A stretch of DNA of 64,000 bases, from assembly GCA_964529965.1 (NCBI GenBank), contig CAZHAD010000003.1, positions 16,660-80,659 on the forward strand, read 5' to 3'. Shown one piece after another: positions 49,718-64,000 of the stretch. Position numbers and translations under genes: made by a program. The notes beneath the pieces are model-generated. The model saw only the letters and a program-made list of their open reading frames with translations, did no database searches and was not told the DNA's origin. Every line of letters starts with the position of its first letter. The first letter of the stretch is position 1. Source of the stretch: an uncultured Leptospirales bacterium. GTDB taxonomy: Bacteria > Spirochaetota > UBA4802 > UBA5550.

Positions 49718-50137
49718 ATGAAAAGCGAGGTAATAGCGATACCGGCGTTTCAGGAACGGGTATCCCCGCTGCTCGACGTGTCGGACCGATACGCCATATA
49801 CGAAACCGAAAACGGCGAGATAAAACAGAAGGTCGGAATAACGGTCGCATGCGACAGCGATGCGCAGAGGATTGAAAAGCTGAAGGAGATAGGCGTCGAC
49901 ACCATCATCTGCGGAGCGGTGAGCGGCTATATCGCTCGCTTCATAAATGAAAGGGGAATGAGGCTTGTATCGATGATATACGGGCCCCTGGAGGAAATAA
50001 TCGACGCCTACCTGAGAAACGCATTACCCGCATGCCGCACCGGCCCGGTTGCATGCGGGCGCCGGCAAAGAAGGAGGCGCGGCCCGGGAAGCGGCGCGGC
50101 CGCGCGGAGAAATCATACAAAGGAGGAGGAGCGATGA
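49718..50137 (+). CDS. NifX/NifB-C-terminal-like domain protein with an Arg-rich C-terminal tail
   Basis: MKSEVIAIPAFQERVSPLLDVSDRYAIYE...IICGAVSGYIARFINERGMRL. Tail CGRRQRRRRGPGSG. Confidence 0.65.
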   Translation: MKSEVIAIPAFQERVSPLLDVSDRYAIYETENGEIKQKVGITVACDSDAQRIEKLKEIGVDTIICGAVSGYIARFINERGMRLVSMIYGPLEEIIDAYLRNALPACRTGPVACGRRQRRRRGPGSGAAARRNHTKEEER

Positions 50138-50493
50138 AGATAGCGGTGACCTCGACGACAAAAACCATAGACTCGCTCATGGATGAACGGTTCGGAAGGG
50201 CCAGTGGTTTTATTATCTTTGACACCGAAACGAGCGGGTACGAGCATATCGACAACACGCAAAATCTGAATTCGACCCAGGGAGCGGGCATTCAGGCCGC
50301 GAAGTCGGTGATAAACACAGGTGCGACCGTGCTCATCACGGGAAACGTCGGACCCAAGGCGTATGCGGCGCTCGCGGCTGCGGGAGTGGAGGTCTTCCTG
50401 AAAAAAGGGGGAACGGCCATGGATGCGGTCGGGGCCTATCTCTCGGGCGCGCTTGCGAAAGCGGCTGAGGCGAATGCCAAAGCACACTGGTGA
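50134..50493 (+). CDS. NifX/NifB-C-terminal-like domain protein
   Basis: AGGAGGAGGA RBS and an ATGA overlap with the upstream gene. MKIAVTSTTKTIDSLMDERFGRASGFIIFD...VLITGNVGPKAYAALAAAGVEVF. Confidence 0.75.
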   Translation: MKIAVTSTTKTIDSLMDERFGRASGFIIFDTETSGYEHIDNTQNLNSTQGAGIQAAKSVINTGATVLITGNVGPKAYAALAAAGVEVFLKKGGTAMDAVGAYLSGALAKAAEANAKAHW

Positions 50494-50603
50494 TCACAAG
50501 AGGTAAGCGGCAAAGATTGAATCGCTGTTTTAAAAAATCGTAACGCGATACTTTCCGGTTCAGTGTATATTTTTAATTTAAAAAAAAAATTCATGGTTGG
50601 GTC

Positions 50604-51446
50604 ATGAAAACTAAAATTACGGTGGTATGCGAGAATAGCGTCGTGGTACCTCTGCCCCTCATCGGAGAGCACGGATTCTCATGCCTGATCGAATCAGAAG
50701 AGGTCACGCTTTTCGATACCGGCCAGGGTCTCGGCATCTTCAACAATCTGAAAAACATGGGAAAAAACATCGACGGAATTAAGCGCGTGGTCCTGAGCCA
50801 CGGGCATTACGACCATACGGGCGGCCTCCTGTCGGTTCTTGAAAGCAGGAACGAGAAGACCCCCGTGTTCGTCCACCCTGACGCCTTCAACGACAAGCGG
50901 GCGGTCATCGCCGCGCCGCAACGAACGATCGACGTCCCCATAGGCATGCGCGCCTCAAAAGAGGCATACGAGCAGGCGGGTGCGGAATTCAATTTTATCA
51001 GGGGATTTGTAAAAATCACCAATTCCATTTCCGCCCTGTCGGAGGTGCAGCGTCCCTCGGGCTGGAAAACCTGGGACAGCCGTCTCAAGCAAAAAGTCAA
51101 CGATATAAATTCCGATGATCCATTCACCGACGACCTCTCGCTTCTGATCACGACAGAATCGGGCCCGGTGGTGCTTCTGGGGTGCGCGCATGCGGGGATC
51201 GTCGAAATCCTTGATGATATTTCAAATAAAACGGGATTCCGTGAATTCCACGCGGTCATCGGCGGCACGCACCTTGAAAGCGCGCCCGAGGACTACATCG
51301 CCAGGACCTTCGACACGCTCAGGAGGTATGCCGTGTGCATAATCGCCGTGTCCCATTGCACCGGATTGAAAACGGCGTGCAGGTTCGCATCTGAGTTTAA
51401 GAGCGAATTCGCTCACGCCTCGGTCGGAAGCGTTTTCGAGTTTTAA
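50604..51446 (+). CDS. MBL-fold metallo-hydrolase (COG1237-like)
   Basis: LSHGHYDHTGGL (HxHxDH) and a later GCAHAG region. 280 aa. Confidence 0.8.
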   Translation: MKTKITVVCENSVVVPLPLIGEHGFSCLIESEEVTLFDTGQGLGIFNNLKNMGKNIDGIKRVVLSHGHYDHTGGLLSVLESRNEKTPVFVHPDAFNDKRAVIAAPQRTIDVPIGMRASKEAYEQAGAEFNFIRGFVKITNSISALSEVQRPSGWKTWDSRLKQKVNDINSDDPFTDDLSLLITTESGPVVLLGCAHAGIVEILDDISNKTGFREFHAVIGGTHLESAPEDYIARTFDTLRRYAVCIIAVSHCTGLKTACRFASEFKSEFAHASVGSVFEF

Positions 51447-51461
51447 CAAGGGGAGTGGGCC

Positions 51462-52322
51462 ATGAACATAACGGTAGCGAGCGGGAAGGGAGGCACGGGA
51501 AAGACGACCGTTGCGCTGTCCCTGGCGGCGTGTTATTCACGCAACGGCATACGCGTCTCCATACTCGACTGCGATGTCGAGGAGCCGAATGTCAATCTCT
51601 TCCTGAAGGCCGAAATAGAGGGCGTCGAAACCTTCAGCATGCCGGTCCCCCGTGTGGAGGAATCACGCTGCACAGGATGCGGGGAGTGCGAGCGGATATG
51701 CGCATTCAACGCCGTCGTGCTTGTAAAGGGAAAGCCGCTGATCTTCCCGGAACTGTGCCATTCATGCGGGGGGTGCGGCCTCGTCTGTCCCGAGGGCGCG
51801 GTCACGGAAACGGCTAAACCGATCGGCGTTATAGAAAGTGGGTACAGAGACGGCGTCAGCTACGCGGGTGGCAGGCTCAATATAGGCGAGCCGATGTCCC
51901 CGCCGCTCATCAGGGAGGTGAAGCGGCGCCATATGGAATCGGACGTCAGGATCATCGATTCGCCTCCGGGTACGTCCTGCCCCGCGGTGGAAGCAATGAA
52001 GGAAAGCGATTACGTTGTGCTGGTGACCGAGCCCACTCCTTTCGGCCTCCACGATCTTACCCTCGCCGCGGGTGCGGTGCGCGCGCTCGGGATCCCGTTC
52101 GGCGTGGTGGTCAACCGGGCGGACATCGGCGACGACTCCTTTATGGAAGAGTGCCTGGCCAGGAGGTATGAGATTATCGCAACCATCCCCCATTCAAGAG
52201 AAATCGCGGAATCATATTCGCGCGGCGACTGCATTTCATATATAATGTACCGCTATCGCGAAGAAATAGAAAAAATCGCGTCACGCGCGGAATACTGCAA
52301 TGCGAGGAACGTTCGGGCATGA
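51462..52322 (+). CDS. MinD/ParA-class P-loop ATPase with inserted 2x[4Fe-4S] ferredoxin module (COG1149-like), type 1
   Basis: SGKGGTGKTT P-loop. CTGCGECERICAFNA and CHSCGGCGLVCPEGA motifs. DSPPGTSCP. Confidence 0.85.
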   Translation: MNITVASGKGGTGKTTVALSLAACYSRNGIRVSILDCDVEEPNVNLFLKAEIEGVETFSMPVPRVEESRCTGCGECERICAFNAVVLVKGKPLIFPELCHSCGGCGLVCPEGAVTETAKPIGVIESGYRDGVSYAGGRLNIGEPMSPPLIREVKRRHMESDVRIIDSPPGTSCPAVEAMKESDYVVLVTEPTPFGLHDLTLAAGAVRALGIPFGVVVNRADIGDDSFMEECLARRYEIIATIPHSREIAESYSRGDCISYIMYRYREEIEKIASRAEYCNARNVRA

Positions 52323-53182
52323 TCCGGGAACTGGTGATCATCAGCGGAAAGGGGGGGACGGGAAAGACGAGCATAGCGGCTTCGTTCGCGGCGCTTGCGA
52401 AAAACAAGGTCATGGCCGACTGCGACGTGGACGCGTCCGACCTTCACCTGGTATTGCAGCCCGGGATCATTCAAACCGAACCCTTTGAAGGCGGCATGAA
52501 GGCATTCATCAACAAGGGCCTGTGCGCCTCATGCGGAGAATGCCTGCGGACATGCCGCTTCGACGCGATCGACGATAATTTTGACGTGGACCAGATATCC
52601 TGCGAGGGGTGCGGAGTGTGCGCGCGTTTCTGCCCCCAGGAGGCGATTGAAATGAGGCGACACGTTTCCGGCAAATGGTTCGTGTCCGATACACGACACG
52701 GGCCGCTCGTGCACGCCCGCCTCGGCATCGCGGAGGGGAATTCGGGCAAGCTCGTCACCCTTATCAAAAAGAAGGCACGTGAGATCGCGGACGAAAGGGG
52801 ACAAGGCCTCGTCATCGTGGACGGCTCGCCGGGCACGGGCTGTCCGGTCATCGCCACGATCTCCGGCGCATCCCTGATCCTGATCGTGACCGAGCCGACC
52901 GTGGCAGGGCTTCACGATCTGCAGAGGGTCTTCGATCTGACCCGCCATTTCCGCGTCAAAGCGGCGGTCTGCGTCAACAAGGCCGACATCAACCCGGACA
53001 AGGCCGCGGAGATAAAGGCGTTTTGCGAACAAAACGCCGTCCCCCTGCTGGCGTCCGTTCCCTATGACACTGAAGTGACGCGGGCGCAGGTGGCCGGAAA
53101 AAGCCTTGTGGAATTTTCCGGGGGAACGGCATCCCGGATATTACGTTCAATGTGGAAAGATATCGAAATATTGTTACATTAG
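52319..53182 (+). CDS. MinD/ParA-class P-loop ATPase with inserted ferredoxin module (COG1149-like), type 2
   Basis: SGKGGTGKTS P-loop. CASCGECLRTCRFDA and CEGCGVCARFCPQEA motifs. DGSPGTGCP. ATGA overlap with the type-1 gene. Confidence 0.85.
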   Translation: MIRELVIISGKGGTGKTSIAASFAALAKNKVMADCDVDASDLHLVLQPGIIQTEPFEGGMKAFINKGLCASCGECLRTCRFDAIDDNFDVDQISCEGCGVCARFCPQEAIEMRRHVSGKWFVSDTRHGPLVHARLGIAEGNSGKLVTLIKKKAREIADERGQGLVIVDGSPGTGCPVIATISGASLILIVTEPTVAGLHDLQRVFDLTRHFRVKAAVCVNKADINPDKAAEIKAFCEQNAVPLLASVPYDTEVTRAQVAGKSLVEFSGGTASRILRSMWKDIEILLH

Positions 53183-53212
53183 TATTAATAGCAAATCAGA
53201 AGGATAAATTAA

Positions 53213-54091
53213 ATGTTGAAAAAGCAGGCTGAAGAAGCATCAAACAACCAGAACCCTGAGGGACCCGTACATGCGGACAAAGAGGCGGAGGAACGCGCCG
53301 CGCTCAAAAAGAACATGGACAGGATATCCCATAAGATCATAGTTCTTTCCGGCAAGGGCGGCGTGGGCAAAAGCACGGTGGCCGTAAACCTCGCCGTTTC
53401 CCTTGCAGAAAAAAAATTCAAGACCGGGCTGCTCGATATCGACATTCACGGCCCCAGCGTCCCGAAGCTCCTGGGAATCGAAAAGGGCCAGGTGCTCGGA
53501 GCCGGAGACGGAAAACTGCTGCCGGTTGAATACAACGAGCACCTCAAGGTCATGTCAATCGGTTTTCTGCTCCAAGACCACGACGATGCGGTGATCTGGC
53601 GCGGGCCGTTGAAATACGGCGTCATCAGGCAGTTCCTCTCCGACGTGGACTGGGGCGAGCTTGACTATCTCATCATCGATTCCCCGCCGGGGACCGGAGA
53701 CGAGCCCCTCACCATATGCCAGCTCATCGAAAATCCGGACGGGGCGATCGTAGTCACCACGCCGCAGGACGTCGCGCTCATCGATGTCAGAAAATCCATA
53801 AGCTTCTGCAAGCAGCTCAATATGCCGGTCATCGGAGTCATTGAAAACATGAGCGGGTTCGTCTGTCCCCATTGCGGAAAAGAAACCGACATATTCAAGA
53901 ACGGCGGCGGGAAAAAAATGGCCGGCGAAACGAGCGTTCCCTACCTCGGCAGTATACCGATCGAGAGCCGCATCACTGCAAGCGGGGACAGCGGAAAGCC
54001 CTTTTACGATGCCGCCGGAGATATCGCCACCGCGGCCCAGAAAAATTTTTCATCCATCGTGGAAACAATAATAAAAGGAGCAACAAAATGA
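53213..54091 (+). CDS. Mrp/NBP35 (ApbC) family Fe-S cluster carrier ATPase
   Basis: SGKGGVGKSTVAVNLA, DSPPGTGDE, and the CPHCG motif in ENMSGFVCPHCGKETDIF. Confidence 0.9.
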   Translation: MLKKQAEEASNNQNPEGPVHADKEAEERAALKKNMDRISHKIIVLSGKGGVGKSTVAVNLAVSLAEKKFKTGLLDIDIHGPSVPKLLGIEKGQVLGAGDGKLLPVEYNEHLKVMSIGFLLQDHDDAVIWRGPLKYGVIRQFLSDVDWGELDYLIIDSPPGTGDEPLTICQLIENPDGAIVVTTPQDVALIDVRKSISFCKQLNMPVIGVIENMSGFVCPHCGKETDIFKNGGGKKMAGETSVPYLGSIPIESRITASGDSGKPFYDAAGDIATAAQKNFSSIVETIIKGATK

Positions 54092-54426
54092 AAATAGCAC
54101 TGCCCATATCGGATAATAAGCTCTGCATGCACTTCGGACACTGCGAGCGCTTTGAGGTCTTCGATGTTGACGACGACACCAAAGAGATTACCGCGCGCGC
54201 GACGTTCGACGCGCCGCCGCACCAGCCCGGGCTTCTGCCGCGCTGGCTGGCTGAGAAAGGGGTGACGTGCGTAATTGCCGGCGGCATGGGCTCACGCGCC
54301 GTCGACATTTTCAGGGAAAACGGCGTGAGCGTCGTCACGGGAGCGAATGCGGGGGAACCGGATTCGATCGTGAAAGATTTTATCCAGGGCCGGCTCATTG
54401 CTGGCGAGAACGTGTGCGACCATTAA
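54088..54426 (+). CDS. NifX/NifB-C-terminal-like domain protein
   Basis: ATGA overlap with the Mrp gene. MKIALPISDNKLCMHFGHCERFEVFDV...CVIAGGMGSRAVDIFRENGVSVV. Confidence 0.8.
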   Translation: MKIALPISDNKLCMHFGHCERFEVFDVDDDTKEITARATFDAPPHQPGLLPRWLAEKGVTCVIAGGMGSRAVDIFRENGVSVVTGANAGEPDSIVKDFIQGRLIAGENVCDH

Positions 54427-54516
54427 CATTACTCACGCCGCGCACATGGTCCATTGACGAACATCCTGATCGATATGGGGGAGTGCCGATACTGATCAAG
54501 GCCGGGGGTAAGCGGC

Positions 54517-54837
54517 ATGGATGAATTTAAATTTAGAAGCGAGGAAATTATCGAGGCGTGCCGCCTCCTGGGAATCGAGGACGGCCATTCCCTTAGAGAT
54601 GTGAAGCGCGCGTATCGCCGTCTGGCCGCGCATCTTCATCCGGATGTCTGCGATGAACCGCTGGACGTGTGCGCAGGGCGCTTCCAGGCCCTCAAAAGGG
54701 CCTATGACCTGCTCGTTCACCACTGCGAAACGCATCCCATTCGTTTTTCAGCGGATAAAAGGCGCAGCGACCCCGAATTTGACCATATCATGAGGTTTTA
54801 CGACGGCTGGCTTGGTGATATTCCAAAAAAACGTTAA
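54517..54837 (+). CDS. J-domain-only protein (DnaJ/HscB-like co-chaperone)
   Basis: LLGIEDGHSLRDVKRAYRRLAAHLHPDV, with the HPD tripeptide. 106 aa. Confidence 0.75.
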   Translation: MDEFKFRSEEIIEACRLLGIEDGHSLRDVKRAYRRLAAHLHPDVCDEPLDVCAGRFQALKRAYDLLVHHCETHPIRFSADKRRSDPEFDHIMRFYDGWLGDIPKKR

Positions 54838-54867
54838 TGAACATCAGAAAAATAGCGGCGGATTCAC

Positions 54868-55161
54868 ATGGGCATCAGGTTAAATAATGTGGAAATTGAG
54901 CTGATTCTCGGACAAGGCTGCTGCATCGAATGCGCGGCCAAGCGTGAATACAACAGGCGCATGGCACACATCATGACAAGCGATGTGACGACCGAACCGG
55001 ATGATGAGACCAAAATGGAGCTGCTGCTGGACTTTCTTGAAACGGCTGATTTCGCCGCACTCCGTGCTTCCGACGAAAGCCTTGCGGGGATGCGAGATTC
55101 CCGTTGCCTTTTAAGAATGAGCGACGACGGCAAGCCGCATGTGACCGTCATTGAACGTTAA
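54868..55161 (+). CDS. Hypothetical 97-aa protein
   Basis: ATG ORF with coding-like composition. Contains GCCIEC. No family recognised. Confidence 0.45.
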   Translation: MGIRLNNVEIELILGQGCCIECAAKREYNRRMAHIMTSDVTTEPDDETKMELLLDFLETADFAALRASDESLAGMRDSRCLLRMSDDGKPHVTVIER

Positions 55162-55193
55162 TTTTATTCTTAATCTAATATAGAGGAATCAAC

Positions 55194-55430
55194 ATGCCAA
55201 CGTATGAATATCATTGTACACAATGCGGATATCGTTACGAGCTCTTTCAGAGAATGAGCGACGAGCCGCGTTCTGCGTGCCCCTCATGCGGCGGAGAGGG
55301 GAAGCGATTGATTTCCGCGGGCGCGGGAATCATCGTCAAGGGAAAAAATACCGCGCCGACTCCCTGCGGGAACGACAGCCCATGCTGCGGCAGGGGTGAG
55401 CCGTGCGGGAAGTCTTTTGAGTGCGGATAA
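55194..55430 (+). CDS. FmdB-family zinc-ribbon protein (CxxC_CxxC_SSSS type)
   Basis: [34 protein letters not shown]. Confidence 0.8.
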
Positions 55431-55449
55431 TATATTAAAGGAGGCGCCT

Positions 55450-56175
55450 ATGCCGGAAGAATTCAAACCGGGTTGCGCGAGGCCTACGGGGGGACCCGTG
55501 GGTGAGGAGCCGGCCTCGGCCGGTTCCAAGGAACCGATCCTAATAGAGGAGGAAAAAAAGGTCATGATCCAGGTCGGAAAAAAAGCCCCTGATTTTATTG
55601 CGCCAGCGTATTATCAGGGAAAATTCGTCACTGTCAAGCTTTCGGAATATCTCGGCAAGTGGACCCTGCTCTGCTTCTATCCCGGAGATTTCACTTTCGT
55701 TTGAGCTACTGAAATTTCGGCGGTCGCCGAAAAATATCCCGAGTTCCAGAAGCTCGGAGTCAACATCCTCTCAATGAGCATCGACAGCGTGTTCGTGCAT
55801 AAAATGTGGAACGACAATGAGCTGTCCAAAATGGTGAAAGGAGGCGTGCCATTCCCCATGCTCTCGGACGCGGGAGGCAAGGTGGGATCGGCATACGGCA
55901 TCTACGACGCAGACGCCGGAGTGGAGACCCGGGGCAGGTTCATCATCGATCCCGACGGGATCGTGCAGGGATTCGAGGTCCTCACGCCGCCGGTCGGCCG
56001 CAACGTGGCCGAGTCGATACGGCAGGTGCAGGCCTTCCAGCTAGTCAGAAACAGCAAGGGCGCCGAGGCCACTCCCTCCGGATGGAAACCGGGCAAGAAG
56101 ACCCTGAAGCCGGGCCCGGACCTTGTGGGCAAAGTCTGGGAGGTTTGGAAAACAAGCATGGCCTTCGACGATTAA
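55450..56175 (+). CDS. Selenocysteine-containing peroxiredoxin (PrxU-like); UGA at 55702-55704 read as Sec
   Basis: Track ORFs 55396..55704 and 55774..56175 are in the same frame, separated only by TGA. Joined, they read [23 protein letters not shown], which is the universal FYPxDFTFVCPTE peroxidatic motif. AAGGAGG precedes ATG 55450. An alternative start at 55564 gives [11 protein letters not shown]. Confidence 0.75.
55715..55732 (+). promoter_or_regulatory. Bacterial SECIS-like hairpin downstream of the peroxiredoxin UGA
   Basis: TTTCGGC-GGTC-GCCGAAA is a 7-bp stem with a GGUC apical loop. It starts 10 nt after the UGA. Confidence 0.6.
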
Positions 56176-56190
56176 GCTCTTTTCACTACT

Positions 56191-56216
56191 CTTGCCCCCG
56201 AAATATCGGGGGCAAG
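56191..56216 (+). terminator. Hairpin after the peroxiredoxin gene
   Basis: CTTGCCCCCG-AAATAT-CGGGGGCAAG is a 10-bp perfect stem. The T-tract is weak (TCTTC). Confidence 0.45.
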
Positions 56217-56426
56217 TCTTCAAAAGGCGATTGCCGTCGGTTCCGCATGCCCGGCACCCGAAATCAACCGCCCTCGATCATTTCTTTTCTCAGAGCATCG
56301 ATCATTTCAAGTGCCTTCGCCGCTGATTTGGCCGAATCCTCGTCTTCGACTGAATTGATCGAATCAAAATCGCCGTAATCGACGTCCGTTCACGAGCCTT
56401 GATAAATAATGAACACCGGGGACTTT

Positions 56427-56915
56427 TCAGCTAATAAAAAATCCCCCCGGCTTTTCTTCAATCGATTCCGGCATCCTTTCCACAAAGTCTTTGATTTCGT
56501 CCCTGACGCGCCGGTATATGGCGAGGGCTTCCTCCTGATTCGCCGCGCTTTTCGCAAGCGTCGGGGGATCTTCAAATCCGTGGTGAACCACTTTTGTCCT
56601 TCCGGGGAATACGGGACAATGCTCGGCGGCGTGTCCGCACAACGTGATGACGAAGTCGAATTCTGTTCCGGCAAATTCATCGACGTGCTTCGAGCGCCGT
56701 CCTGAAATGTCGATTCCTATCTCGGCCATTACCTTGACCGCGAGGGGATCGACGCCGCGCGGCTCGGTGCCTGCGGAATACGCCTCAATGACGCCGCTCT
56801 TGAGCGCACCCGCAAGCCCCTCGGCCATCTGGCTACGGCAGGAGTTGCCGGTGCAGAGGAAAAGTATCTTTAATTTATTTTCCGCCAAATTACATCCGCG
56901 TCCCTGTATGATCAT
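56427..56915 (-). CDS. arsC: Arsenate reductase, LMW-PTPase/thioredoxin-coupled type
   Basis: ILFLCTGNSCRSQMAEG (CX5R loop) and the Cys pair in ITLCGHAAEHCP. The start may be downstream of 56915. Confidence 0.85.
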   Translation of the reverse strand: MIIQGRGCNLAENKLKILFLCTGNSCRSQMAEGLAGALKSGVIEAYSAGTEPRGVDPLAVKVMAEIGIDISGRRSKHVDEFAGTEFDFVITLCGHAAEHCPVFPGRTKVVHHGFEDPPTLAKSAANQEEALAIYRRVRDEIKDFVERMPESIEEKPGGFFIS

Positions 56916-57040
56916 TTGAAAAGCCAGTCATATCTCACAACGATGTATATTCACCTGAATTTTCAATCATTAATTCTTCCGTTTCCATAAGTTGAAGTAT
57001 TTTATCTCGGCATTATAACATCGAGGGCGGTATAAACAAA

Positions 57041-57063
57041 GCTCGCGGCAGGATACCGCGAGC
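57041..57063 (-). terminator. Intrinsic terminator after the rhodanese gene
   Basis: The minus strand reads GCTCGCGG-TATCCTG-CCGCGAGC followed by TTTGTTTAT. A perfect TATAAT (57017-57012, minus strand) follows and may be the arsC promoter -10. Confidence 0.55.
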
Positions 57064-57163
57064 ATGTAAGGTATCAACGACCTAGTCGCTTCAACGGCAG
57101 CACAGACGGCCGTGAAGGCACCCGTGACGGTCGTTTCGCTTGGCTCACATTGAGAGCAGGGCC

Positions 57164-57607
57164 TTACTCTACGGGATAACCCTTTCTGGACCAGGCCTGC
57201 CAGCCACCGTCTATATTTTTGATATTCGTGTAGCCCATTCTTGTCAGATTGAAGGCGGTTAGACAGGCACGTCCGCCCGACTTGCAATAAATAATGATTT
57301 GAGCGGCTTTATCAGGGATCTTGCTCGTGACCTTAAACTCGATAAGACCCCTCGGAATATTAATTGCATTAGGCACATGACCGGCCTTATACTCCTTTGG
57401 CTCTCTCACATCGAGAAAAATAACACCGCTCTTGCCGAGCATGGCTTTGGCTTTATCCACAGAAATGGAAACAACTGATTTCTTCGCCTCGTCAACGAGG
57501 TCTTTGGCGGTCATATCCTTGGCTAAAGAAAAATCGACCTTGAAAACGAAAGCAAAGCCAATCATTAAGATCACTGTCAAGCGAAGAAGCAAATTTTTTT
57601 CTCTCAT
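57164..57607 (-). CDS. Periplasmic rhodanese-domain sulfurtransferase
   Basis: Signal peptide MREKNLLLRLTVILMIGFAFVF. Active-site loop YCKSGGRA. Rhodanese core FLDVREPKEYKAGHVPNAINIP. Confidence 0.85.
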   Translation of the reverse strand: MREKNLLLRLTVILMIGFAFVFKVDFSLAKDMTAKDLVDEAKKSVVSISVDKAKAMLGKSGVIFLDVREPKEYKAGHVPNAINIPRGLIEFKVTSKIPDKAAQIIIYCKSGGRACLTAFNLTRMGYTNIKNIDGGWQAWSRKGYPVE

Positions 57608-57703
57608 GAAGCTCTCTCCTTACTTTTAATTTTTAAATAAAACCCGTAGTTTGTAAAAATGTATTGAATCCATCGGAACAACCCACATCCGCTCCACGTT
57701 GAA

Positions 57704-59050
57704 CTAGCGATCCCGCATTTCGGAAATCCTTTCGGGTACCTTGTCAACCGGAACGATAACGCTCTCATTCGCTTTAAGCTCGCTGTCGACGACATCTTTC
57801 TTGAGAAGAAATAACGATTCGTTCCCGTGACACGAATTACAGCTCTTATTCTGCGACGTCTTTCTTCTGATATTATGGGGCGTCGTCATCTTCCACGTGG
57901 GAACACTGTTAAAATTCACTAAGGATCTCTTGGTATAATACTCACAAGTGCTGTCACAGACAGGTATATGCCTGAGGACGGAAAACTTTTCCGGCCTTTT
58001 CTTCGACCGCATCGGATTGAATCCGATCTTAAAGGCCATCCAGGAGGCCTTGCTCTTATAACAGGGAATCCCTCTTGTGTCGATACTCACGTGACAGGAA
58101 GTGCAATTTTTATACGGCTGGGAATGACAGACATAGCAGCTCGCTTTATCCCTGTGAATTGTATGTGTTTTAGCATTCTTAGAGTTACTGTCATAGATCT
58201 TCTTATGGCAATTTATGCACATCGGACCATTATCAACAGCGTATCGATTTTTGTATTCCTTGTCACCGCCATGCATCTCCGTACCGGTATGGCACTTCTC
58301 ACATTTCATAAATTTTTCGTAATGAACATCAGGCTTCATGTCCTTGTTCTCGCCGAAATATTCCTTTCCGATTCTGCTGCCGTGACATGCAGTGCAAACC
58401 AATTTCATGGGAGGCTTTCTCTGAAAGAGATGCCCTTCAAGGAACCCGCCATCAATAGAGTTCGGTCTGCTGATATGACACTGCCCGCAGCTGCTATGGC
58501 ACGTGCTGCAGTGATTCTTGAAGACTTTATCCATTTTTTTCCGAATTGCCTTATCGGAGCCCGCCCTCTTGTAGAGCGCCGTTTTAAAAGGCTTCAGGGT
58601 AACGTGAAGGCTCTTTCCGTAATTCTTTACTATGTCATCGTGACAATCACCGCAGACCTTCCCTGCATCGGGATAGGTCGGGTCTTTAACCACGCCCTTG
58701 TGTGCGGTTTTCCAATTGGGATCCCCCGGGTTGCCTCCATGGCAGGTGTGACACTCGATATTTCCGTGGTTTTCATCCTCAAGAATGTCACTGTCTACGA
58801 AGATCTTTTCATGCGGGGCCAACGGCTCCACCTCACCGCCTCATCCCTCACCCTCATTGGCAGGTTTAATTACCGGCCTTGTTTTGGCGATCTCCCTGGT
58901 TATTTCAATCAACGTGCGTGCATTTGTATGGCACTTGAAGCACTGGCTTGCAGGTACCTCGGCGCCGAAGGGTTCGCCCTGCATGAGAAGCAGACAGGAT
59001 ACAACGAAAAGACAAAATAACCCGGCAATGCCCAAATATTTCCCCATCAA
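57704..59050 (-). CDS. Multihaem c-type cytochrome (10 CxxCH + 1 upstream CxxCH); the signal-peptide segment is joined through an in-frame UGA (58843-58841), so a possible selenoprotein
   Basis: Track ORFs 58841..59050 (signal peptide + CFKCH) and 57704..58831 (GTG start, no signal peptide, 10 CxxCH) are in the same frame. They are separated by TGA-GGC-GGT-GAG. The fused reading is ...PANEGEG-U-GGEVEPLAPHE.... Confidence 0.55.
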
Positions 59051-59259
59051 TACGTTTACCTCATAATAATTGTTAAAGCGTCTGAAAGATGATGAATTAC
59101 TGGATTATTTCAGCTCCAATCAGCCGCCTTGAAGTCCTAATTTAAAATCCATTCCTCAAAAATAAATACCCTTCCCTCCGATCATCATATTACGTTCAGC
59201 CGGATAATTGATAATTGACTGCGGTATTGGTCACTATTCCTTCGGGGTGGAATGCTGCA

Positions 59260-59607
59260 CTATTTAATCCTTTTCGAAAACAGCTTTGATCTCAACTGCA
59301 TTATTTCAATAATACCCTCTCTAATCGTTTTATATCCTTTGATAATTTTAGGATTGGCTATCTGGTAAAAAACATGCTTTCCCTCTTTCCGTTCAATCAG
59401 CACCCCCCATTCCTTCATGAGACGCAGGTGCTGGGATACGTTCGAGGGCGAGATGCCGATTTTTTTAGCTAGTTCCCCAACAGAATATTTATGCCCCTCA
59501 AGGGCCCACAAGATCTGGAGCCTCTTCTCATGTGAAAAAACGCTGCAGATGCCGGCATGTATTTTAAAAATCTCTAAATCTTTATTTTCGTTCATGGCAA
59601 ATTTCAC
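59260..59607 (-). CDS. ArsR/SmtB family transcriptional regulator (lacks the CVC As(III)-binding triad)
   Basis: HEKRLQILWALEGHKYSVGELAKKIGISPSNVSQHLRLMKEWGVL winged HTH. Only one Cys (GICSVF). Confidence 0.85.
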   Translation of the reverse strand: MKFAMNENKDLEIFKIHAGICSVFSHEKRLQILWALEGHKYSVGELAKKIGISPSNVSQHLRLMKEWGVLIERKEGKHVFYQIANPKIIKGYKTIREGIIEIMQLRSKLFSKRIK

Positions 59608-59637
59608 CCGATGATGAATGCGGCTGTTAATTCATGT

Positions 59638-59674
59638 AAAATACCCCGCAGTCCCGACGAGTCGGGACGGGGTT
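59638..59674. repeat. REP-like conserved hairpin, copy 3
   Basis: AAAATACCCCGCAGTCCCGACGAGTCGGGACGGGGTT, between the IscU-like gene and arsR. Confidence 0.7.
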
Positions 59675-60016
59675 TATAGGCTTTCCTATCGAAAAGAACG
59701 GACGCGCTGTGATAAAAAGTAATTCCAAACATGCGGCTGACAAATCGCTTTCCCAAAAGCTCTTACCGGAAAAAAAACGAGCACTATTTGAAATTTAAGC
59801 GCATCAGTATAGCCATGTTCTTCAATAATTACAATCTGTTATATGCAATTATGTTTATATTCGAATATTATAATATATGAATAACTAAATATACTTGTTT
59901 CTGTCAATAAAAAATTCAGACCGGCAATTAATAAAAACGCGGTTTTCGACCGAAAGAATGCCGGCGGCGGCGCAAAAAATCAATATTACAGTCAATCTGC
60001 TCATCAGATTCGTCTT

Positions 60017-60400
60017 CTATAAATTTTCAAGACGGAGCAGGTAAACGGCCACCGCCTTGTGAAGCGTCATGACCGCGAGTATGGCGCAGTGTACGTCCTC
60101 CCCGGATAAGTCACCCAGTGCATCGATTACGCCAGCCGGCGATATCCTGAGCGCTTCCCTGATTGTTCTTCCTACGGCGAACTTTGCCGCCGTCGAACCG
60201 CATCCCACCGATGACATGCAGCCGTCGGTGTAGAATAGCGCCTCCGCAATCCGCCCGTCGGCTATGACGAGATACATCTCCATCGTGTCGCCGCACAGTC
60301 CCTTGATGAAGGCCGAACCGTCGGGATCGTTCATGCGGCCCATGTTGCCGGGAATCTTATGCCGTTCGTTCATTGGAGTCGCCCCGTTATTTCGCTCCAT
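60017..60400 (-). CDS. IscU/NifU N-terminal-like Fe-S scaffold protein
   Basis: Three conserved Cys contexts: GLCGDTMEMYL, FYTDGCMSSVGCGS and DVHCAILAV. Confidence 0.8.
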   Translation of the reverse strand: MERNNGATPMNERHKIPGNMGRMNDPDGSAFIKGLCGDTMEMYLVIADGRIAEALFYTDGCMSSVGCGSTAAKFAVGRTIREALRISPAGVIDALGDLSGEDVHCAILAVMTLHKAVAVYLLRLENL

Positions 60401-60450
60401 AGTGATCTCCCATTGAGAAGAGCGTGATGTGACGCTTAAGATTTCAGCGT

Positions 60451-60987
60451 TTAAACGATTTTGATATGGATATCAAACCCTTCATCGGGGAAGCCGTCCG
60501 CCGCTTTGCCTACGCGGTACACGGTACCGTTTTCCGCGCCCGGCGGTATGGCAACCGATACTTTACTGAAGCCGGAAGGCCCTTCCATGATGAATTCCCG
60601 CTCGGCGCCTATTCGAGCCTCCTCCGGCGAAAGCTCCACCACGCAGGCAAAGACGAAGGCTGCACGCCGGCCGAACTTACCGCGCCTTCCGCAGCACCCG
60701 CGACCCCGGCCATACATGGCCGCCCCCATGCCTCCCGGCCGCATGAAAAAATCCATTCCATAAGGGACCCCGCGGGCGCGCGACAGGTCATAAGCCCTCC
60801 TCTTTAATGGGTCGGCAAGCACATCATAGGCGACGACGATCTCCTTGAATTTCCTTTCGGCCTCCTGGTCTCCTGGATTTTTATCTGGATGATATTTCAG
60901 CGCAAGCCTGCGAAAAGCAGTTTTGATTTCGCCTTGCGAGGCGCCGTCGCTTATATCCAGCGCTGAATAGTAATCGCGAGCATACAT
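60451..60987 (-). CDS. DnaJ-domain protein with a short C-terminal domain
   Basis: [36 protein letters not shown]. Followed by a Gly/Arg-rich linker and a DnaJ-C-like fragment. Confidence 0.8.
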
Positions 60988-60990
60988 TTT

Positions 60991-61460
60991 TTATCTGCCT
61001 TTTTTATATTCGCGTAAGCCTCTCTCCCTGGCCGTTGTTTCGGTAATCGAATCCTGCCATCCGTTACGCGTCGAATCTATCCGATCAAACCTTTTTACAT
61101 AGGGTTTTATATCAATAACGGGAGTGCCGTCAAGGACATCAAGATCGTCACAAGGTACAGCGTGCTGCCCTCGATCCCGAGGAGCTGTACGATGCTCAGG
61201 CCTATCGGGTTCGGCCTTGCGGGTAAGCGTGTCGCGAACAGGCCCCTTTCCGCATCGTCCAGGAAAGGTCTCACCAGCAGCTTGGCGGAACCGGCGCGGT
61301 GGAGATAGTAAATAATATAAATATGGGAAAATTCCTCCAGGTCTTTCAAACCCTCCGCGTATTCAGAAAATATCTCCGCGTATCCGCGGCAGCCGTTCGA
61401 CTAGGCGGGCTGGACCGGCGTTTCAGAAGTATCTGCATGTTCGCTGTGGATGACTCCGAT
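60991..61460 (-). pseudogene. TrmO/TsaA (YaeB) family methyltransferase with three lesions (no start codon, in-frame TAG, frameshift)
   Basis: The reading frame starts at ATC directly after the upstream stop (IGVIHSEHADTSETPVQPA). TAG lies at 61403-61401. Then SNGCRGYAEIFSEYAEGLKDLEEFSHIY...ATRLPARPNPIGLS. A frameshift near 61144-61148 restores LDVLDGTPVIDIKPYVKRFD... up to the stop at 60991-60993. Confidence 0.7.
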
Positions 61461-61463
61461 TTA

Positions 61464-62120
61464 TCAATCGCTGTTTTTCCGTCGCGCCGAATACAATATC
61501 TGCCACTCGTCCTCGACAACACTCACATCGAAATTAAATTCCTTCATGTAAGCGCCAACGATGCTGAAATCGCCCGGTTTCCTCTCATGGGTCCTCCCCT
61601 CAAACCTGTGAACCCGTTCAACGGCGTCGAAACCTTTTTCGGTAAAATCGGAAACGACGATCTGCCTGTCCGCAATCCGCATCATTTCTCTCATAACCTT
61701 GAATAGAAAATCGAGATGATGAAAAGTAAATGCCGATACGACCGCATCAAAGCTCTTATCCGGGTAGCCAAGCTTACCCGCGTCCGCCGTTACGAATTCA
61801 ATCTTATGTAATAGACCGTAATACGCCGCGTTAAGCATCGCCGTTCGATGCTCATTGCCGTCAAGCCCAACAGAAACAATTCTGTCAAAAGACCTGGCCA
61901 GCATAACCGTACAGTACCCCCTCCCGGTACCAATCTCAAGAACCGATTTGTTATGTTCAGACACCTGGTTGACAAATCTCCTCCGCGCCTCTTCCTGATC
62001 GAACCCGTATCTCTTATAAAGAGCCATTCTCTCAGAGAAAAAAGCATGGTTGACGGCAATGTCTTCATCCGAAGCGCCTTCCGCAATATTCAAGTTCGCG
62101 CAATCCCTGTCCGCGTTCAT
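61464..62120 (-). CDS. Class I SAM-dependent methyltransferase
   Basis: Motif I VLEIGTGRGYCT. DAVVSAFTFHHL. Confidence 0.8.
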   Translation of the reverse strand: MNADRDCANLNIAEGASDEDIAVNHAFFSERMALYKRYGFDQEEARRRFVNQVSEHNKSVLEIGTGRGYCTVMLARSFDRIVSVGLDGNEHRTAMLNAAYYGLLHKIEFVTADAGKLGYPDKSFDAVVSAFTFHHLDFLFKVMREMMRIADRQIVVSDFTEKGFDAVERVHRFEGRTHERKPGDFSIVGAYMKEFNFDVSVVEDEWQILYSARRKNSD

Positions 62121-62431
62121 GTTTGATCGTCCTTCTCATTAATCATGGAGGTGATCATGTCCGCCATCCGATGTCCGACAACCGTGACCGTCACGCCGCT
62201 GACCCCCTCCAGTCTCTCAAGGGCCTCCCTGATACGAAATGCCAGCGGCAACACCAGCGGGCACTCGGGAGACGATGGGCGGAACTCCATAGAGACCGCG
62301 CCCCCGCCGTTTATCGACAGGTTTCGTATCAGCCCCATGCTCATCACATCCATGTTGGTGCCTGGGTCGGTTACTTCCTTGAGCCTTTGATGAAGCCGTT
62401 CCATCATATCCATCGCCCACTCACGTTTCAA
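62117..62431 (-). CDS. DUF59 (MIP18/SufT-like) Fe-S assembly domain protein
   Basis: LKEVTDPGTNMDVMSMGLIRNLSI...FRPSSPECPL. 4-nt overlap with the methyltransferase gene. Confidence 0.7.
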   Translation of the reverse strand: MKREWAMDMMERLHQRLKEVTDPGTNMDVMSMGLIRNLSINGGGAVSMEFRPSSPECPLVLPLAFRIREALERLEGVSGVTVTVVGHRMADMITSMINEKDDQT

Positions 62432-63281
62432 GACGGCCCCGTATGCGTTCCCACATTTTTTTCACCTCAGCGGTAACTTCCCCGCAATCGTGTTCCACCA
62501 CGGACTTGCGCAGTATCATGGCCTTGGTTACCTCCGGGTCGTACCGTATCTTCCCCGCGACATCGAGTCCTTTTGCCGCACAGTACTCCTCGATGGTTGA
62601 CGCATTATAGGGATTGATGTCGCACTTGTTGATGCATACCATAACCGGTATGTCAAAGTGCGCTGCCACATCAACCACGCGTTTGAGGTCATGGATGCCC
62701 GAAAGCGTCGGTTCCGTGACGGCCAGAAGAAGATCCGCGCCGGTGATCGAGGCTATTACCGGACAGCCGATACCCGGCGGCCCGTCCGTGATAATCGTGG
62801 GGGTAGCTTCCCCTTCCGCGGCATTTGACGCCAGCTGGCGCACCAGGGTCACCAGTTTGCCGGAGTTCTCTTCTGCGATGCCGAGCCGGGCGTGCGTCAT
62901 GGTCCCGGCTCTGGTATGCGATATGAACCACCTGCCCGAGATGGCGCGCTCCATGGCGATCGCCTCTTCCGGGCAGGTCCGCGCGCAAAAGGCGCACCCC
63001 TCGCAGGACACCGGGTCGACGGTGAAATCGTGTATGGCGTCGAAGCGGCAGAGGCTCTCGCAAAGACCGCAGCGCGTGCATTTCGATTCGTCAATGACGG
63101 CTATCTTTCCCCCGAGAAAATCGCCGGTTTCCACGCTTTCCGGATCCAGTATGAGATGGAGGTCCGCCGCGTCGACGTCGCAGTCGGCGATTACCGGGGC
63201 CTTCGCCAGCATCGAGAGCGCCGCCGTGATGCTGGTTTTCCCTGTCCCACCCTTACCGCTTATGACAGTGAGCTTTTTCAT
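62421..63281 (-). CDS. MinD/ParA-class P-loop ATPase with inserted ferredoxin module (COG1149-like), type 2 paralogue
   Basis: MKKLTVISGKGGTGKTS. CTRCGLCESLCRFDA and CEGCAFCARTCPEEA motifs. DGPPGIGCP. Colinear with 52319..53182. Confidence 0.85.
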   Translation of the reverse strand: MKKLTVISGKGGTGKTSITAALSMLAKAPVIADCDVDAADLHLILDPESVETGDFLGGKIAVIDESKCTRCGLCESLCRFDAIHDFTVDPVSCEGCAFCARTCPEEAIAMERAISGRWFISHTRAGTMTHARLGIAEENSGKLVTLVRQLASNAAEGEATPTIITDGPPGIGCPVIASITGADLLLAVTEPTLSGIHDLKRVVDVAAHFDIPVMVCINKCDINPYNASTIEEYCAAKGLDVAGKIRYDPEVTKAMILRKSVVEHDCGEVTAEVKKMWERIRGRLET

Positions 63282-64000
63282 ATCTGGCATACTCCGCTTT
63301 GATGTGGTCAAACAGGGACTCATAGCGCGCACGGTATTCCCGGAGGTTCTCAAGAATGAGCATCCCCGCCGAGTACTGCTCCGCGATACGACGGTCCCAG
63401 GGAAAAGACATCAATATCGGAATTTTTTCCTCTTCGCAGTAGTTGCTCACCTCGTTATCGCCGATATTGCATAAATTTATTACCACGCCCATTGGAACGT
63501 TGAGTTTCCTGACCATTTCAACCGCGAGCTTTAAATCGTTGAGGCCGAAAGGCGTCGGTTCCGTCACCAAAACGCAGAAATCGGCACCCTTCACGGTTTC
63601 CACCACCGGGCAGGATGTTCCGGGCGGCGAGTCCAAGATGACCGTACGCCCGGACTCGATGCGATCCTTCACCCTACGTATGAGAGGTGGCGCCATGGGC
63701 TCCCCGACGTTCAGGACGCCGTGAACGAAGGATAGACCACCAGTTGATCCTGTTTCAATGACGCCTATCTCGCGATCCTCCTCGCGGATGGCCTTTTCCG
63801 GGCAGAAATACTCACATGCGCCGCACCCGTGGCAGAGCTCCGGGAATACCATGACGCGCTTCTTTATAACGACGATCGCGCTGAACTCGCAAACCTCGCC
63901 GCACTTCCCGCAATGGGTGCACCGCGATTCATCGACCACGGGCACAGGAAGCCCTACTGTTTCCCTTTTATAAATAACCGGCTTCAAGAACAGATGTGTG
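63253..64000 (-). CDS. MinD/ParA-class P-loop ATPase with inserted ferredoxin module (COG1149-like), type 1 paralogue; N-terminus beyond the window
   Basis: The frame stays open to the window edge (THLFLKPVIYK...). CTHCGKCGEVCEFSA and CHGCGACEYFCPEKA motifs. DSPPGTSCP. Colinear with 51462..52322. Confidence 0.85.
   Translation of the reverse strand, partial: THLFLKPVIYKRETVGLPVPVVDESRCTHCGKCGEVCEFSAIVVIKKRVMVFPELCHGCGACEYFCPEKAIREEDREIGVIETGSTGGLSFVHGVLNVGEPMAPPLIRRVKDRIESGRTVILDSPPGTSCPVVETVKGADFCVLVTEPTPFGLNDLKLAVEMVRKLNVPMGVVINLCNIGDNEVSNYCEEEKIPILMSFPWDRRIAEQYSAGMLILENLREYRARYESLFDHIKAEYARYEKAHCHKR

Follow-up and report, generated by a model that had tools for sequence, protein, structure and literature searches.

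The closest described counterpart of the gene reported here is MccSep/ExtKL (GSU2937-2936) of Geobacter sulfurreducens, a multihaem cytochrome c containing selenocysteine (Sec) that acts as a polysulfide reductase and was characterised in 2026 (PDB 9wt8; PMC13510729). Its gene cluster holds a rhodanese, ExtH (PMC13510729, PMC5877670). Cytochrome-plus-rhodanese clusters have also been proposed for sulfur/thiosulfate reduction in Dethiobacter alkaliphilus, in which the cytochrome DealDRAFT_1917 had been 'misidentified as a thiosulfate sulfurtransferase' (PMC10376724), and TIGR04315, the family of the octahaem tetrathionate reductase (OTR), has GenBank-annotated Sec members (PMC13188914).

The locus compared here with these systems lies in a 64,000-nucleotide (64-kb) stretch of DNA, which we call the window. 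An earlier note on this DNA had described an ORF encoding a signal peptide and CFKCH that stops at TGA 58843-58841, followed three codons later in the same frame by a GTG-initiated ORF with 10 CxxCH motifs and no signal peptide, and this layout was confirmed. The upstream ORF (59050..58841, minus strand) encodes MMGKYLGIAGLFCLFVVSCLLLMQGEPFGAEVPASQCFKCHTNARTLIEITREIAKTRPVIKPANEGEG, the start codon of the gene being TTG 59050 or ATG 59047. The codons GGC GGT GAG separate the TGA from GTG 58831, where the downstream ORF begins and from which it runs for 375 aa to TAG 57706-57704. Read through, the gene yields a product of 448 aa with 11 CxxCH motifs, and the junction, ...KPANEGEG-U-GGEVEPLAPHEK, is exactly as the note had written it. 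The features of the cytochrome gene and of the gene that follows it are:

57704..59050, minus strand: gene for an undecahaem c-type cytochrome of 448 aa, predicted to contain Sec; 11 CxxCH in one frame, and tblastn matches that cross the TGA in 80 genomes.
58961..59050, minus strand: Sec-type signal peptide MMGKYLGIAGLFCLFVVSCLLLMQGEPFGA, read from the sequence, with a predicted cleavage point.
58928..58942, minus strand: the first haem-binding motif, CFKCH, with the conserved helix T..LIxITREIA after it; conservation is at least 95% for each of C, C, H and T.
58841..58843, minus strand: in-frame UGA, predicted selenocysteine 70 of the motif G-E-G-U-G-G.
58813..58831, minus strand: SECIS-like hairpin GUGGAGCC-GUU-GGCCCCGC, its 5' end 12 nt past the U of the UGA, identified by conservation and covariation.
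57707..58840, minus strand: cytochrome body with haem motifs 2-11, supported by nine invariant non-motif His, Pfam matches and an AF2 model.
57164..57607, minus strand: periplasmic single-domain rhodanese of 147 aa with a signal peptide and the loop C108-K-S-G-G-R, probably co-transcribed with the cytochrome.
57041..57063, minus strand: intrinsic-terminator-like hairpin found by sequence scan (10 bp, 7 of them GC, with a T tail), which would close the cytochrome-rhodanese unit.

The resemblance to MccSep/ExtKL is extensive. Each is a c-type multihaem protein of the periplasm whose single Sec is specified by an in-frame UGA with a SECIS-like hairpin downstream of it. Both families are annotated as two split ORFs, have Cys-type relatives, occur mostly in Desulfobacterota and place their Sec in a loop that contains Gly (DGUP in MccSep, GEGUGG here). 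Each cluster has a rhodanese gene, although the MccSep partner is the 49-kDa ExtH whereas that of the window cytochrome is the small 147-aa protein encoded directly downstream. The proteins themselves differ. The window cytochrome has 11 haems versus 5 in MccSep, and its Sec, residue 70, falls between haem 1 and haem 2, whereas that of MccSep is residue 325 in a C-terminal Ig-like domain; the MccSep Cys239 partner and His/Cys-ligated haem have no conserved counterpart Cys in the window family. A phmmer search of PDB sequences (9wt8 and 9wt9 included) with the window protein gave no hit to 9wt8 at E<=10, the family profile reached MccSep only at E=0.064 and over a generic haem stretch, and the NCBIfam model for MccSep/ExtKL (NF040886) gave no hit at E<=0.1. 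The window cytochrome is not a member of MccSep/ExtKL; it may work in an MccSep-like manner without being homologous. Searches with NF041027 (the GSU2204-family CXXCH selenoprotein) and, in NCBIfam, with TIGR04315 likewise gave no hit at E<=0.1; by sequence, the cytochrome matches neither of the two other cytochrome-type selenoprotein families of a 2026 review.

To establish how the UGA is read we compared the site among relatives, as the earlier note had proposed. TGA occupied the G-E-G-*-G-G position in 85 of 85 sequences, made up of the window, 80 species-level genomes and four near-identical contigs assembled independently from the same population in other samples, which chance could by no means account for; all 80 species representatives kept it, down to 45% protein identity, and 12 contigs from several samples carried it. 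The protein sequence before and after the TGA showed conservation indicative of purifying selection. Upstream and in frame, every orthologue had the signal peptide and haem-1 module, a hydrophobic N-terminus preceding haem 1 throughout the 80 genomes. One close homologue (L085/P0009) had TGC (Cys) at the site and one relative (L086, CP070657.1) had TGG (Trp), and both of these forms are continuous ORFs. Among 31 distant full-length homologues, about 10-13 carried Cys at the aligned position (e.g. GEGCGG, GGGCGG, GECCGG); many distant homologues had W, Y, H or other residues there, and Sec or Cys is not kept at this site throughout the superfamily. A single window would have left room for an error of sequencing or assembly, or for a pseudogene of recent origin, options that the earlier note had kept in view and to which the TGG of L086 lends some colour, but the same TGA in independent assemblies and in every species representative, the purifying selection before and after it and the conserved hairpin refute them, and we give them practically no chance.

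With fdhF of E. coli as the model, a bacterial SECIS element was looked for as a stem-loop about 11 nt after the UGA whose apical loop contains G and U (G23 U24 in fdhF). Such a stem-loop is present here, G21 U22 being the counterpart. The earlier note had seen a GC hairpin with a GUU loop after the UGA; that hairpin is real and lies at 58831-58813, but the bulged U and A ascribed to it are absent, and the stem consists of seven pairs, including one U-G wobble, with one A.C mismatch. Folded alone, the window hairpin has an ordinary stability (-12.6 kcal/mol, z = 0.43). Because stability alone was not distinctive, comparative evidence was used, and the significance of the hairpin lies in its conservation. 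Its 5' end falls 11-12 nt after the U of the UGA in 56 of 79 sequences; all 79 have GUU as the loop, and the Leu codon is UUG in 78 of them, though six codons are possible. The stem is maintained by compensatory swaps, VEPLAP (GAGCC/GGCUC) being replaced by VAPLEP (GCUCC/GGAGC) or LAPLAP (GGCGCC/GGCGCC), with compensatory pair counts of CG:15/AU:7 and GC:14/UA:12, and none of 500 shuffles reached the observed covariation. L085, which has Cys, does not keep the loop: ACA stands in place of GUU. A search of Rfam with the whole window at the gathering score and with the hairpin at E<=10 returned no SECIS family; Rfam is without a usable bacterial SECIS model.

The window also encodes a known selenoprotein:

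55450..56175, plus strand: PrxU, a selenocysteine peroxiredoxin with UGA 55702-55704 at the peroxidatic Cys (NF040737 peroxi_PrxU, 399 bits, cut-off 270).

Because PrxU is encoded in the same window, the organism appears to decode UGA as Sec. A scan of the window for further in-frame TGA candidates found only PrxU and the cytochrome gene convincing, and selA, selB, selC (tRNA-Sec) and selD were not found within its 64 kb. Since the UGA is conserved, the hairpin covaries, Cys homologues exist and PrxU is present, the single Sec-containing polypeptide that the earlier note had put forward gains support, and a genuine, widely conserved Sec codon within one exported 11-haem cytochrome is the strongly supported reading of the sequence comparisons. 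The note had considered Sec in a multihaem cytochrome unusual; MccSep/ExtKL, of a different family, now provides a precedent (PMC13510729).

The UGA might instead serve mainly as a stop or regulatory switch, giving a 69-aa monohaem peptide and a separate 375-aa protein started at GTG, or the full-length chain only when selenium is available. A GAGG lies 7 nt before GTG 58831, and about 736 of 738 database entries have the ORFs annotated as separate. The GAGG, however, simply reflects the codons for Gly and Glu in the conserved GEGUGGE motif. No orthologue showed the mark of two separate genes that the earlier note had named, a signal peptide belonging to the second ORF itself, yet the 10 sites of that ORF need periplasmic haem attachment; the two parts were never apart or out of frame in the 80 genomes, and the Cys and Trp forms are continuous. 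A selenium-dependent yield would be compatible with Sec insertion and hence does not compete with it. We consider a stop or switch very improbable.

With 11 CxxCH motifs, an export signal and conserved distal His, the protein is by its sequence a c-type multihaem cytochrome. Pfam matches above the cut-offs were PF14522, PF14537 and PF13435 (Cytochrome_C7, c3_2, C554). A lipoprotein reading was rejected; the VVSC lipobox-like motif of the window is not kept in orthologues. The structure was modelled with AF2 on the natural Cys homologue P0009, 58% identical to the window protein, as a proxy, giving a pLDDT of 92 overall and about 85 in the Sec-site loop; a model built on a shallow 26-sequence alignment (pLDDT 47) was discarded. 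Thus the Sec does lie in a Gly-rich segment, as the earlier note had it, but in a confidently modelled loop and not in a loose linker. In a Foldseek search of a library that runs to 2026-04-08, from which 9wt8 may be absent, the only fold above noise was the OTR of Shewanella oneidensis (PDB 1sp3; E=0.013, prob 0.89). The match is weak (TM-score 0.29-0.30, 16% identity) and aligns a core of query residues 167-304 with OTR residues 90-236, so that the N-terminal module of haem 1, Sec loop and haem 2 falls outside it. OTR was also the second-best profile hit (E=2.3e-11); it has 8 haems versus 11 in the window cytochrome and is a catalytic multihaem protein that reduces a sulfur compound, as we propose for the window cytochrome. 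An equivalence of Sec70 with Cys64 of the OTR active-site region (Cys64/Lys56) was considered and rejected, because the profile alignment matches the OTR N-terminus to query 112-181, a stretch that follows the Sec loop.

Against the 11 haems, only nine non-motif His are invariant, with two more conserved at 94%, and the orthologue alignment contains no conserved non-motif (partner) Cys. Eleven haems with nine invariant His are consistent with a catalytic, not a purely electron-carrying, protein. They also bear on the proposal that Sec70 is an axial ligand, forming a His/Sec haem comparable with the His/Cys haems of TsdA, SoxAX and DsrJ and serving catalysis or redox tuning there, not acting as a free swinging nucleophile. 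The shortfall of strictly invariant distal-type His would leave a place for such a ligand, as would the absence of any other conserved Cys able to ligate haem and the ordered loop of the model; if the two His at 94% are counted, however, all 11 haems could be bis-His, and W, Y or H stands at the position in many homologues. We know of no natural Sec-ligated haem. Although His/Cys ligation is used by sulfur-metabolising multihaem enzymes (PMC13510729), we regard ligation by Sec70 as unlikely.

The neighbouring rhodanese may point to sulfur chemistry. A rhodanese gene was present at 74 of the 80 loci, on the same strand as the cytochrome in 72 and at a median position directly downstream; its Cys108 and the signal peptides are conserved across relatives, and the two proteins are fused in P0142 and P0130. 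No terminator-like site was found between the cytochrome and rhodanese genes of the window, and the terminator-like hairpin past the rhodanese gene is a strong one. The link does not strictly need the chalcogen residue, because many distant homologues, including the fusion P0142 (Tyr), lack Sec or Cys there. The cytochrome could also do no more than carry or conduct electrons, as other multihaem cytochromes of deltaproteobacteria do, with a structural or metal-binding Sec and an unrelated rhodanese neighbour. In Pfam and profile searches it matched generic modules (c3, c7, c554) and cytochromes of electron transfer (3ov0, UndA, MtrF), and some homologues have neither Cys nor Sec. Yet Sec is a costly residue and nearly always catalytic, the rhodanese is linked at most loci and fused in some relatives, and the best structural match is an enzyme; we think a mere carrier improbable.

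Comparison of the sequences establishes one gene, a conserved UGA, a covarying SECIS hairpin, a Sec/Cys pair and the rhodanese linkage. We hold with high confidence that this one gene, its UGA read as Sec with the aid of the SECIS element, encodes an exported 11-haem protein that would act as a Sec- and haem-dependent periplasmic reductase of the sulfur/polysulfide type fed by the rhodanese. SelB and tRNA-Sec would insert Sec at UGA codon 70, aided by the bacterial SECIS-type hairpin, and translation would enter the 10-haem body; the N-terminal signal peptide would export the full chain to the periplasm, where the 11 haems would be attached. The redox-active residue would be the Sec, which sits in G-E-G-U-G-G, an ordered loop rich in Gly that lies between the first and second haem motifs. 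Cys108 of the periplasmic rhodanese would bear sulfane sulfur (persulfide or polysulfide) or a selenium analogue and hand the sulfane sulfur to the selenolate, and electrons delivered by the haem chain would reduce the Se-S adduct, with release of sulfide. Our best guess is thus that the protein reduces sulfane sulfur, polysulfide or a related chalcogen in the periplasm and depends on its Sec to do so; what it reduces, which way the reaction runs and how the Sec is placed relative to a haem are what we infer, and thiosulfate, tetrathionate, selenite or arsenic-sulfur species could equally be the substrate. A bolder and tentative proposal is that of an unrecognised selenoenzyme family in which the Sec either ligates haem, as the first natural His/Sec haem, or forms a Se-S relay with the rhodanese Cys, for haem-driven periplasmic reduction or disproportionation of zero-valent sulfur or polysulfide.

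A similar division of labour is seen in Wolinella succinogenes, where the sulfur carrier Sud is paired with the reductase Psr: as here, a periplasmic rhodanese-type carrier accompanies a terminal reductase, although Psr is a molybdoenzyme and not a cytochrome. In the Dethiobacter alkaliphilus clusters, unlike the window cytochrome, Sec has not been reported. Many members of the window family carry the JGI label 'thiosulfate/3-mercaptopyruvate sulfurtransferase', a wrong name of the kind given to DealDRAFT_1917.

The family is widespread, occurring in at least 583 species-level genomes of marine and sediment sulfate reducers and their relatives, including Desulfosarcina and MAGs of sulfate-reducing bacteria associated with short-chain alkanes or methane. 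About 736 of 738 database homologues begin after the UGA. The family is absent from NCBIfam and from the searched part of the selenoprotein family table of the 2026 review. Because gene callers truncate it and JGI misnames it, a periplasmic 11-haem selenoprotein common in Desulfobacterota would go unseen in metabolic reconstructions. Set against MccSep, which in 2026 was shown to be the sulfur-respiration enzyme of Geobacter, this second, unrelated rhodanese-tied Sec multihaem family suggests that Sec-plus-haem sulfur chemistry evolved more than once. The cytochrome-rhodanese pair is a concrete candidate for periplasmic zero-valent-sulfur/polysulfide turnover in sulfate reducers, in which the enzymes are poorly known, and it is directly testable in the cultured hosts Desulfosarcina widdelii PP31 and Dethiosulfatarculus sandiegensis SPR. 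The former has a complete genome (NZ_AP021875.1) with the locus at 6078167-6089468, the latter a draft genome.

The wider neighbourhood is variable. Directly upstream of the cytochrome gene lies a regulator gene:

59260..59607, minus strand: ArsR/SmtB-family regulator (NF033788, 74 bits), present in only 1 of 80 related loci.

This ArsR-type regulator and an ArsC-like protein are local neighbours in the window. ArsR, the ArsC-like protein and PrxU were each found in 0-2 of the 80 loci and were rejected as parts of a conserved system. A sigma-54 PAS activator was present nearby in 37 of the 80.

The candidate selenocysteine (Sec) cytochrome is encoded on the minus strand between positions 59050 and 57704, where the coordinates bear out the layout of two same-frame ORFs described in the earlier note.

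59050 (TTG) or 59047 (ATG) to the TGA stop at 58843-58841, minus strand: upstream ORF, encoding a hydrophobic signal peptide, then haem motif 1 (CFKCH), then a short helix-forming stretch
Between TGA 58843-58841 and GTG 58831, minus strand: in-frame codons GGC GGT GAG
58831 (GTG) to the TAG stop at 57706-57704, minus strand: downstream ORF of 375 aa (ORF finder), with 10 CxxCH motifs

Re-reading of the sequence gave the same read-through junction as before, ...KPANEGEG-U-GGEVEPLAPHEK..., within a product of 448 aa containing 11 CxxCH motifs.

A protein search returned 738 homologues, nearly all 367-379 aa long and starting directly after the UGA. Among the 120 matches listed, only two were full-length. 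A 99%-identical protein occurs on 12 contigs drawn from several JGI samples, and all four near-identical loci that were fetched carried the identical split ORF pair. Scanning one genome per species identified at least 583 relatives, the best 80 of which (45% to 64% identity) were kept. These belonged mostly to Desulfobacteraceae and Desulfobacterales, Desulfatiglandales, Syntrophales and Desulfovibrionales, with the isolates Desulfosarcina widdelii PP31 and Dethiosulfatarculus sandiegensis SPR among them. At the conserved G-E-G-*-G-G site, 85 of 85 sequences (the window, the four near-identical contigs and the 80 relatives) had TGA, always following, in the same frame, a signal peptide and C-x-x-C-H-T...LIxITREIA. 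A sequencing error, an option raised in the earlier note, does not fit a UGA shared by all of these sequences, contigs from several samples among them; the codon is conserved. Nor did the downstream part form a separate second gene with a signal peptide in any orthologue among the 80 relatives. One clade of Syntrophales/Syntrophaceae MAGs (L058, L062, L067, L071, L072, L074 and L076) encodes Sec cytochromes with 13 CxxCH motifs and a C-terminal extension ending with a hydrophobic helix and RRRK; these are probably membrane-anchored at the C-terminus.

Alignment of orthologues at the Sec position, a check suggested earlier, yielded Cys as well as TGA. P0009, a close natural homologue, has Cys at this position (EGEW-C-GG), and when P0009 was used to query 1.84 billion representatives exhaustively, 540 relatives emerged. 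Cys occupied the aligned Sec column in about 10-13 of the 31 distant full-length relatives examined (for example GEGCGG, GGGCGG, SSCGG, ESCGG, GECCGG, CDGCGG and CENCSG), while the remainder had W, Y, H or other residues. The close homologue P0004 (locus L086; CP070657.1, 1635158-1644492) has TGG (Trp) at the Sec codon, at about position 4199 of the locus, despite a perfect SECIS hairpin; the codon either changed very recently or was miscalled when this closed MAG was assembled or polished. L086 has no annotated rhodanese downstream of its cytochrome.

A known selenoprotein is also encoded in the window.

55450-56175, plus strand: selenoperoxiredoxin PrxU, with TGA 55702-55704 exactly at the peroxidatic-Cys position

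PrxU scored 399 bits against NF040737 (cut-off 270) and has a GU-loop hairpin, UUUCGGC-GGUC-GCCGAAA, about 12 nt downstream of its TGA. Since this UGA lies at the peroxidatic-Cys position, the organism evidently decodes UGA as Sec; no tRNA-Sec gene was reported within the 64-kb window. Gene callers divide PrxU into AhpC-TSA ORFs of 84 aa and 133 aa.

The cytochrome UGA is followed by a hairpin whose geometry fits that of the E. coli fdhF-type bacterial SECIS.

58831-58813, minus strand: SECIS-like hairpin GUGGAGCC-GUU-GGCCCCGC, with one A.C mismatch and seven pairs, one of them a U-G wobble

By itself this hairpin has an unremarkable folding energy (z = 0.43). Among 79 distinct Sec-type sequences, the apical loop was GUU in all 79, the Leu codon supplying the loop was UUG in 78, although six synonymous codons are possible, and the preceding Pro codon was CCG in 72; stems were mostly of 7-9 pairs, with the 5' end 11-12 nt past the U of UGA in 56. 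The stem covaries by clade, GAGCC/GGCUC (VEPLAP) versus GCUCC/GGAGC (VAPLEP) versus GGCGCC/GGCGCC (LAPLAP), so that symmetric amino acid swaps keep the RNA pairing. In an alignment of 26 sequences, 88.5% of cells are paired, two stem pairs have changed on both sides (CG:15/AU:7 and GC:14/UA:12), and the covariation score of 0.349 was reached by none of 500 shuffles, with slid controls at or below 0.137. Because the Cys-type locus of P0009 (L085, TGC) has an ACA loop in place of GUU and the EPLAP peptide is lost altogether from distant Cys-type proteins, the conservation of this peptide in Sec forms is an RNA constraint.

Given the conserved TGA, the covarying hairpin, the Cys homologues and PrxU, the observation set out in the earlier note stands as real, and the selenocysteine interpretation is very likely right. 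At the level of sequence, the data indicate one exported polypeptide with a Sec codon and a SECIS element, paired with a rhodanese in 74 of the 80 related loci (same strand in 72). The family is widespread and systematically mis-annotated, and it is testable since cultured strains carry it.

Pfam detected only generic multihaem modules (c7, c3_2 and c554) and NCBIfam held no model for the cytochrome, the best match being ExtM at 23.7 bits against a cut-off of 800. The NCBIfam search gave no match to ExtKL (NF040886), octahaem tetrathionate reductase (OTR; TIGR04315) or GSU2204 (NF041027), the only cytochrome-type selenoprotein families that a term search of a 2026 prokaryotic selenoproteome review (PMC13188914) brought up. 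By these searches, the cytochrome lies outside every described cytochrome selenoprotein family against which it was tested. Across 78 full-length sequences all 11 haem motifs and the Sec were conserved, nine non-motif His were invariant and two more were 94% conserved, and no other Cys was conserved. An AlphaFold2 model of P0009, built from a diverse 77-sequence alignment, was confident (pLDDT 92.3, pTM 0.86). Because the Cys/Sec-bearing loop, between haems 1 and 2, has a pLDDT of about 85, it is predicted to be ordered; the Gly-rich character noted earlier holds, the idea of a loose linker does not. In a Foldseek search of the PDB, only Shewanella OTR 1sp3 matched above noise (E=0.013, probability 0.89, TM about 0.3); the fold library runs to April 2026 and may lack the MccSep structure. 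The profile alignment to 1sp3 spans the middle haems only, leaving the Sec module outside.

Immediately downstream, and on the same strand, is the 147 aa rhodanese, which has a signal peptide of its own and an active-site loop reading C108-K-x-G-G-R; it is predicted to be periplasmic and catalytic. No terminator-like site was found between the two genes in the window.

57063-57041: strong terminator-like site, after the rhodanese

In homologues P0142 (715 aa; Tyr at the Sec position) and P0130 (652 aa) the cytochrome is fused to two C-terminal rhodanese domains. Many family members carry the JGI label 'thiosulfate/3-mercaptopyruvate sulfurtransferase', probably because such fusions exist. Another homologue, P0145, has by eye an N-terminal rhodanese-like remnant, with no Pfam rhodanese domain at E<=1e-4. 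Dethiobacter clusters likewise pair cytochrome and rhodanese and have been proposed to act in sulfur/thiosulfate reduction; there, the D. alkaliphilus cytochrome DealDRAFT_1917 adjoins rhodanese genes and was once misnamed thiosulfate sulfurtransferase (PMC10376724). This cytochrome may belong to the superfamily as a distant Cys-type or non-Sec protein.

There is precedent for a multihaem enzyme of sulfur metabolism that contains Sec: MccSep/ExtKL, a Geobacter polysulfide reductase characterised in 2026 (PMC13510729). Like the window locus, the Geobacter ext cluster includes a rhodanese, ExtH (PMC5877670). MccSep carries 5 haems and has its Sec, Sec325, in a C-terminal Ig-like domain, with Cys239 as a ligand of haem 2 (PMC13510729), whereas the window cytochrome has 11 haems, Sec between haems 1 and 2, and no other conserved Cys in its family. 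The window protein did not match MccSep in the PDB sequence set that includes it, and the family profile reached only E=0.064, across a generic haem stretch. The main alternative for the Sec is a role as a direct axial haem ligand. In a catalytic role, which we favor, sulfane sulfur (or selenium) would pass from the rhodanese to the selenolate, and electrons arriving through the haem chain would cleave the Se-S bond, a MccSep-like chemistry on an unrelated scaffold.

Near the cytochrome (about 1-3 kb either side), 37 of the 80 related loci have a sigma-54-dependent PAS-domain activator, and about 8-17 have formate-dehydrogenase-like genes (catalytic subunit, 4Fe-4S subunit, cytochrome b, FdhE); these are a possible regulator and possible electron-donor partners, respectively. 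An ArsR-type regulator, an ArsC-like protein and PrxU were rejected as conserved neighbours, as they are not kept in the 80 loci. The first two flank the cytochrome-rhodanese pair in the window organism only, and may suggest local regulation by a metalloid or sulfur species.

56427-56915, minus strand: ArsC-like low-molecular-weight phosphatase-type arsenate reductase (139 bits, below the equivalog cut-off)
59260-59607, minus strand: ArsR/SmtB regulator
61107-61349: TrmO_N fragment, 80 aa

In the stretch from about 50000 to 64000, the cytochrome is flanked on each side by a block of Fe-S-related genes. The two blocks are similar and encode Nitro_FeMo-Co-family proteins, CbiA/ParA-type ATPases that carry ferredoxin domains, and DnaJ-like, NifU_N and FeS_assembly_P proteins.
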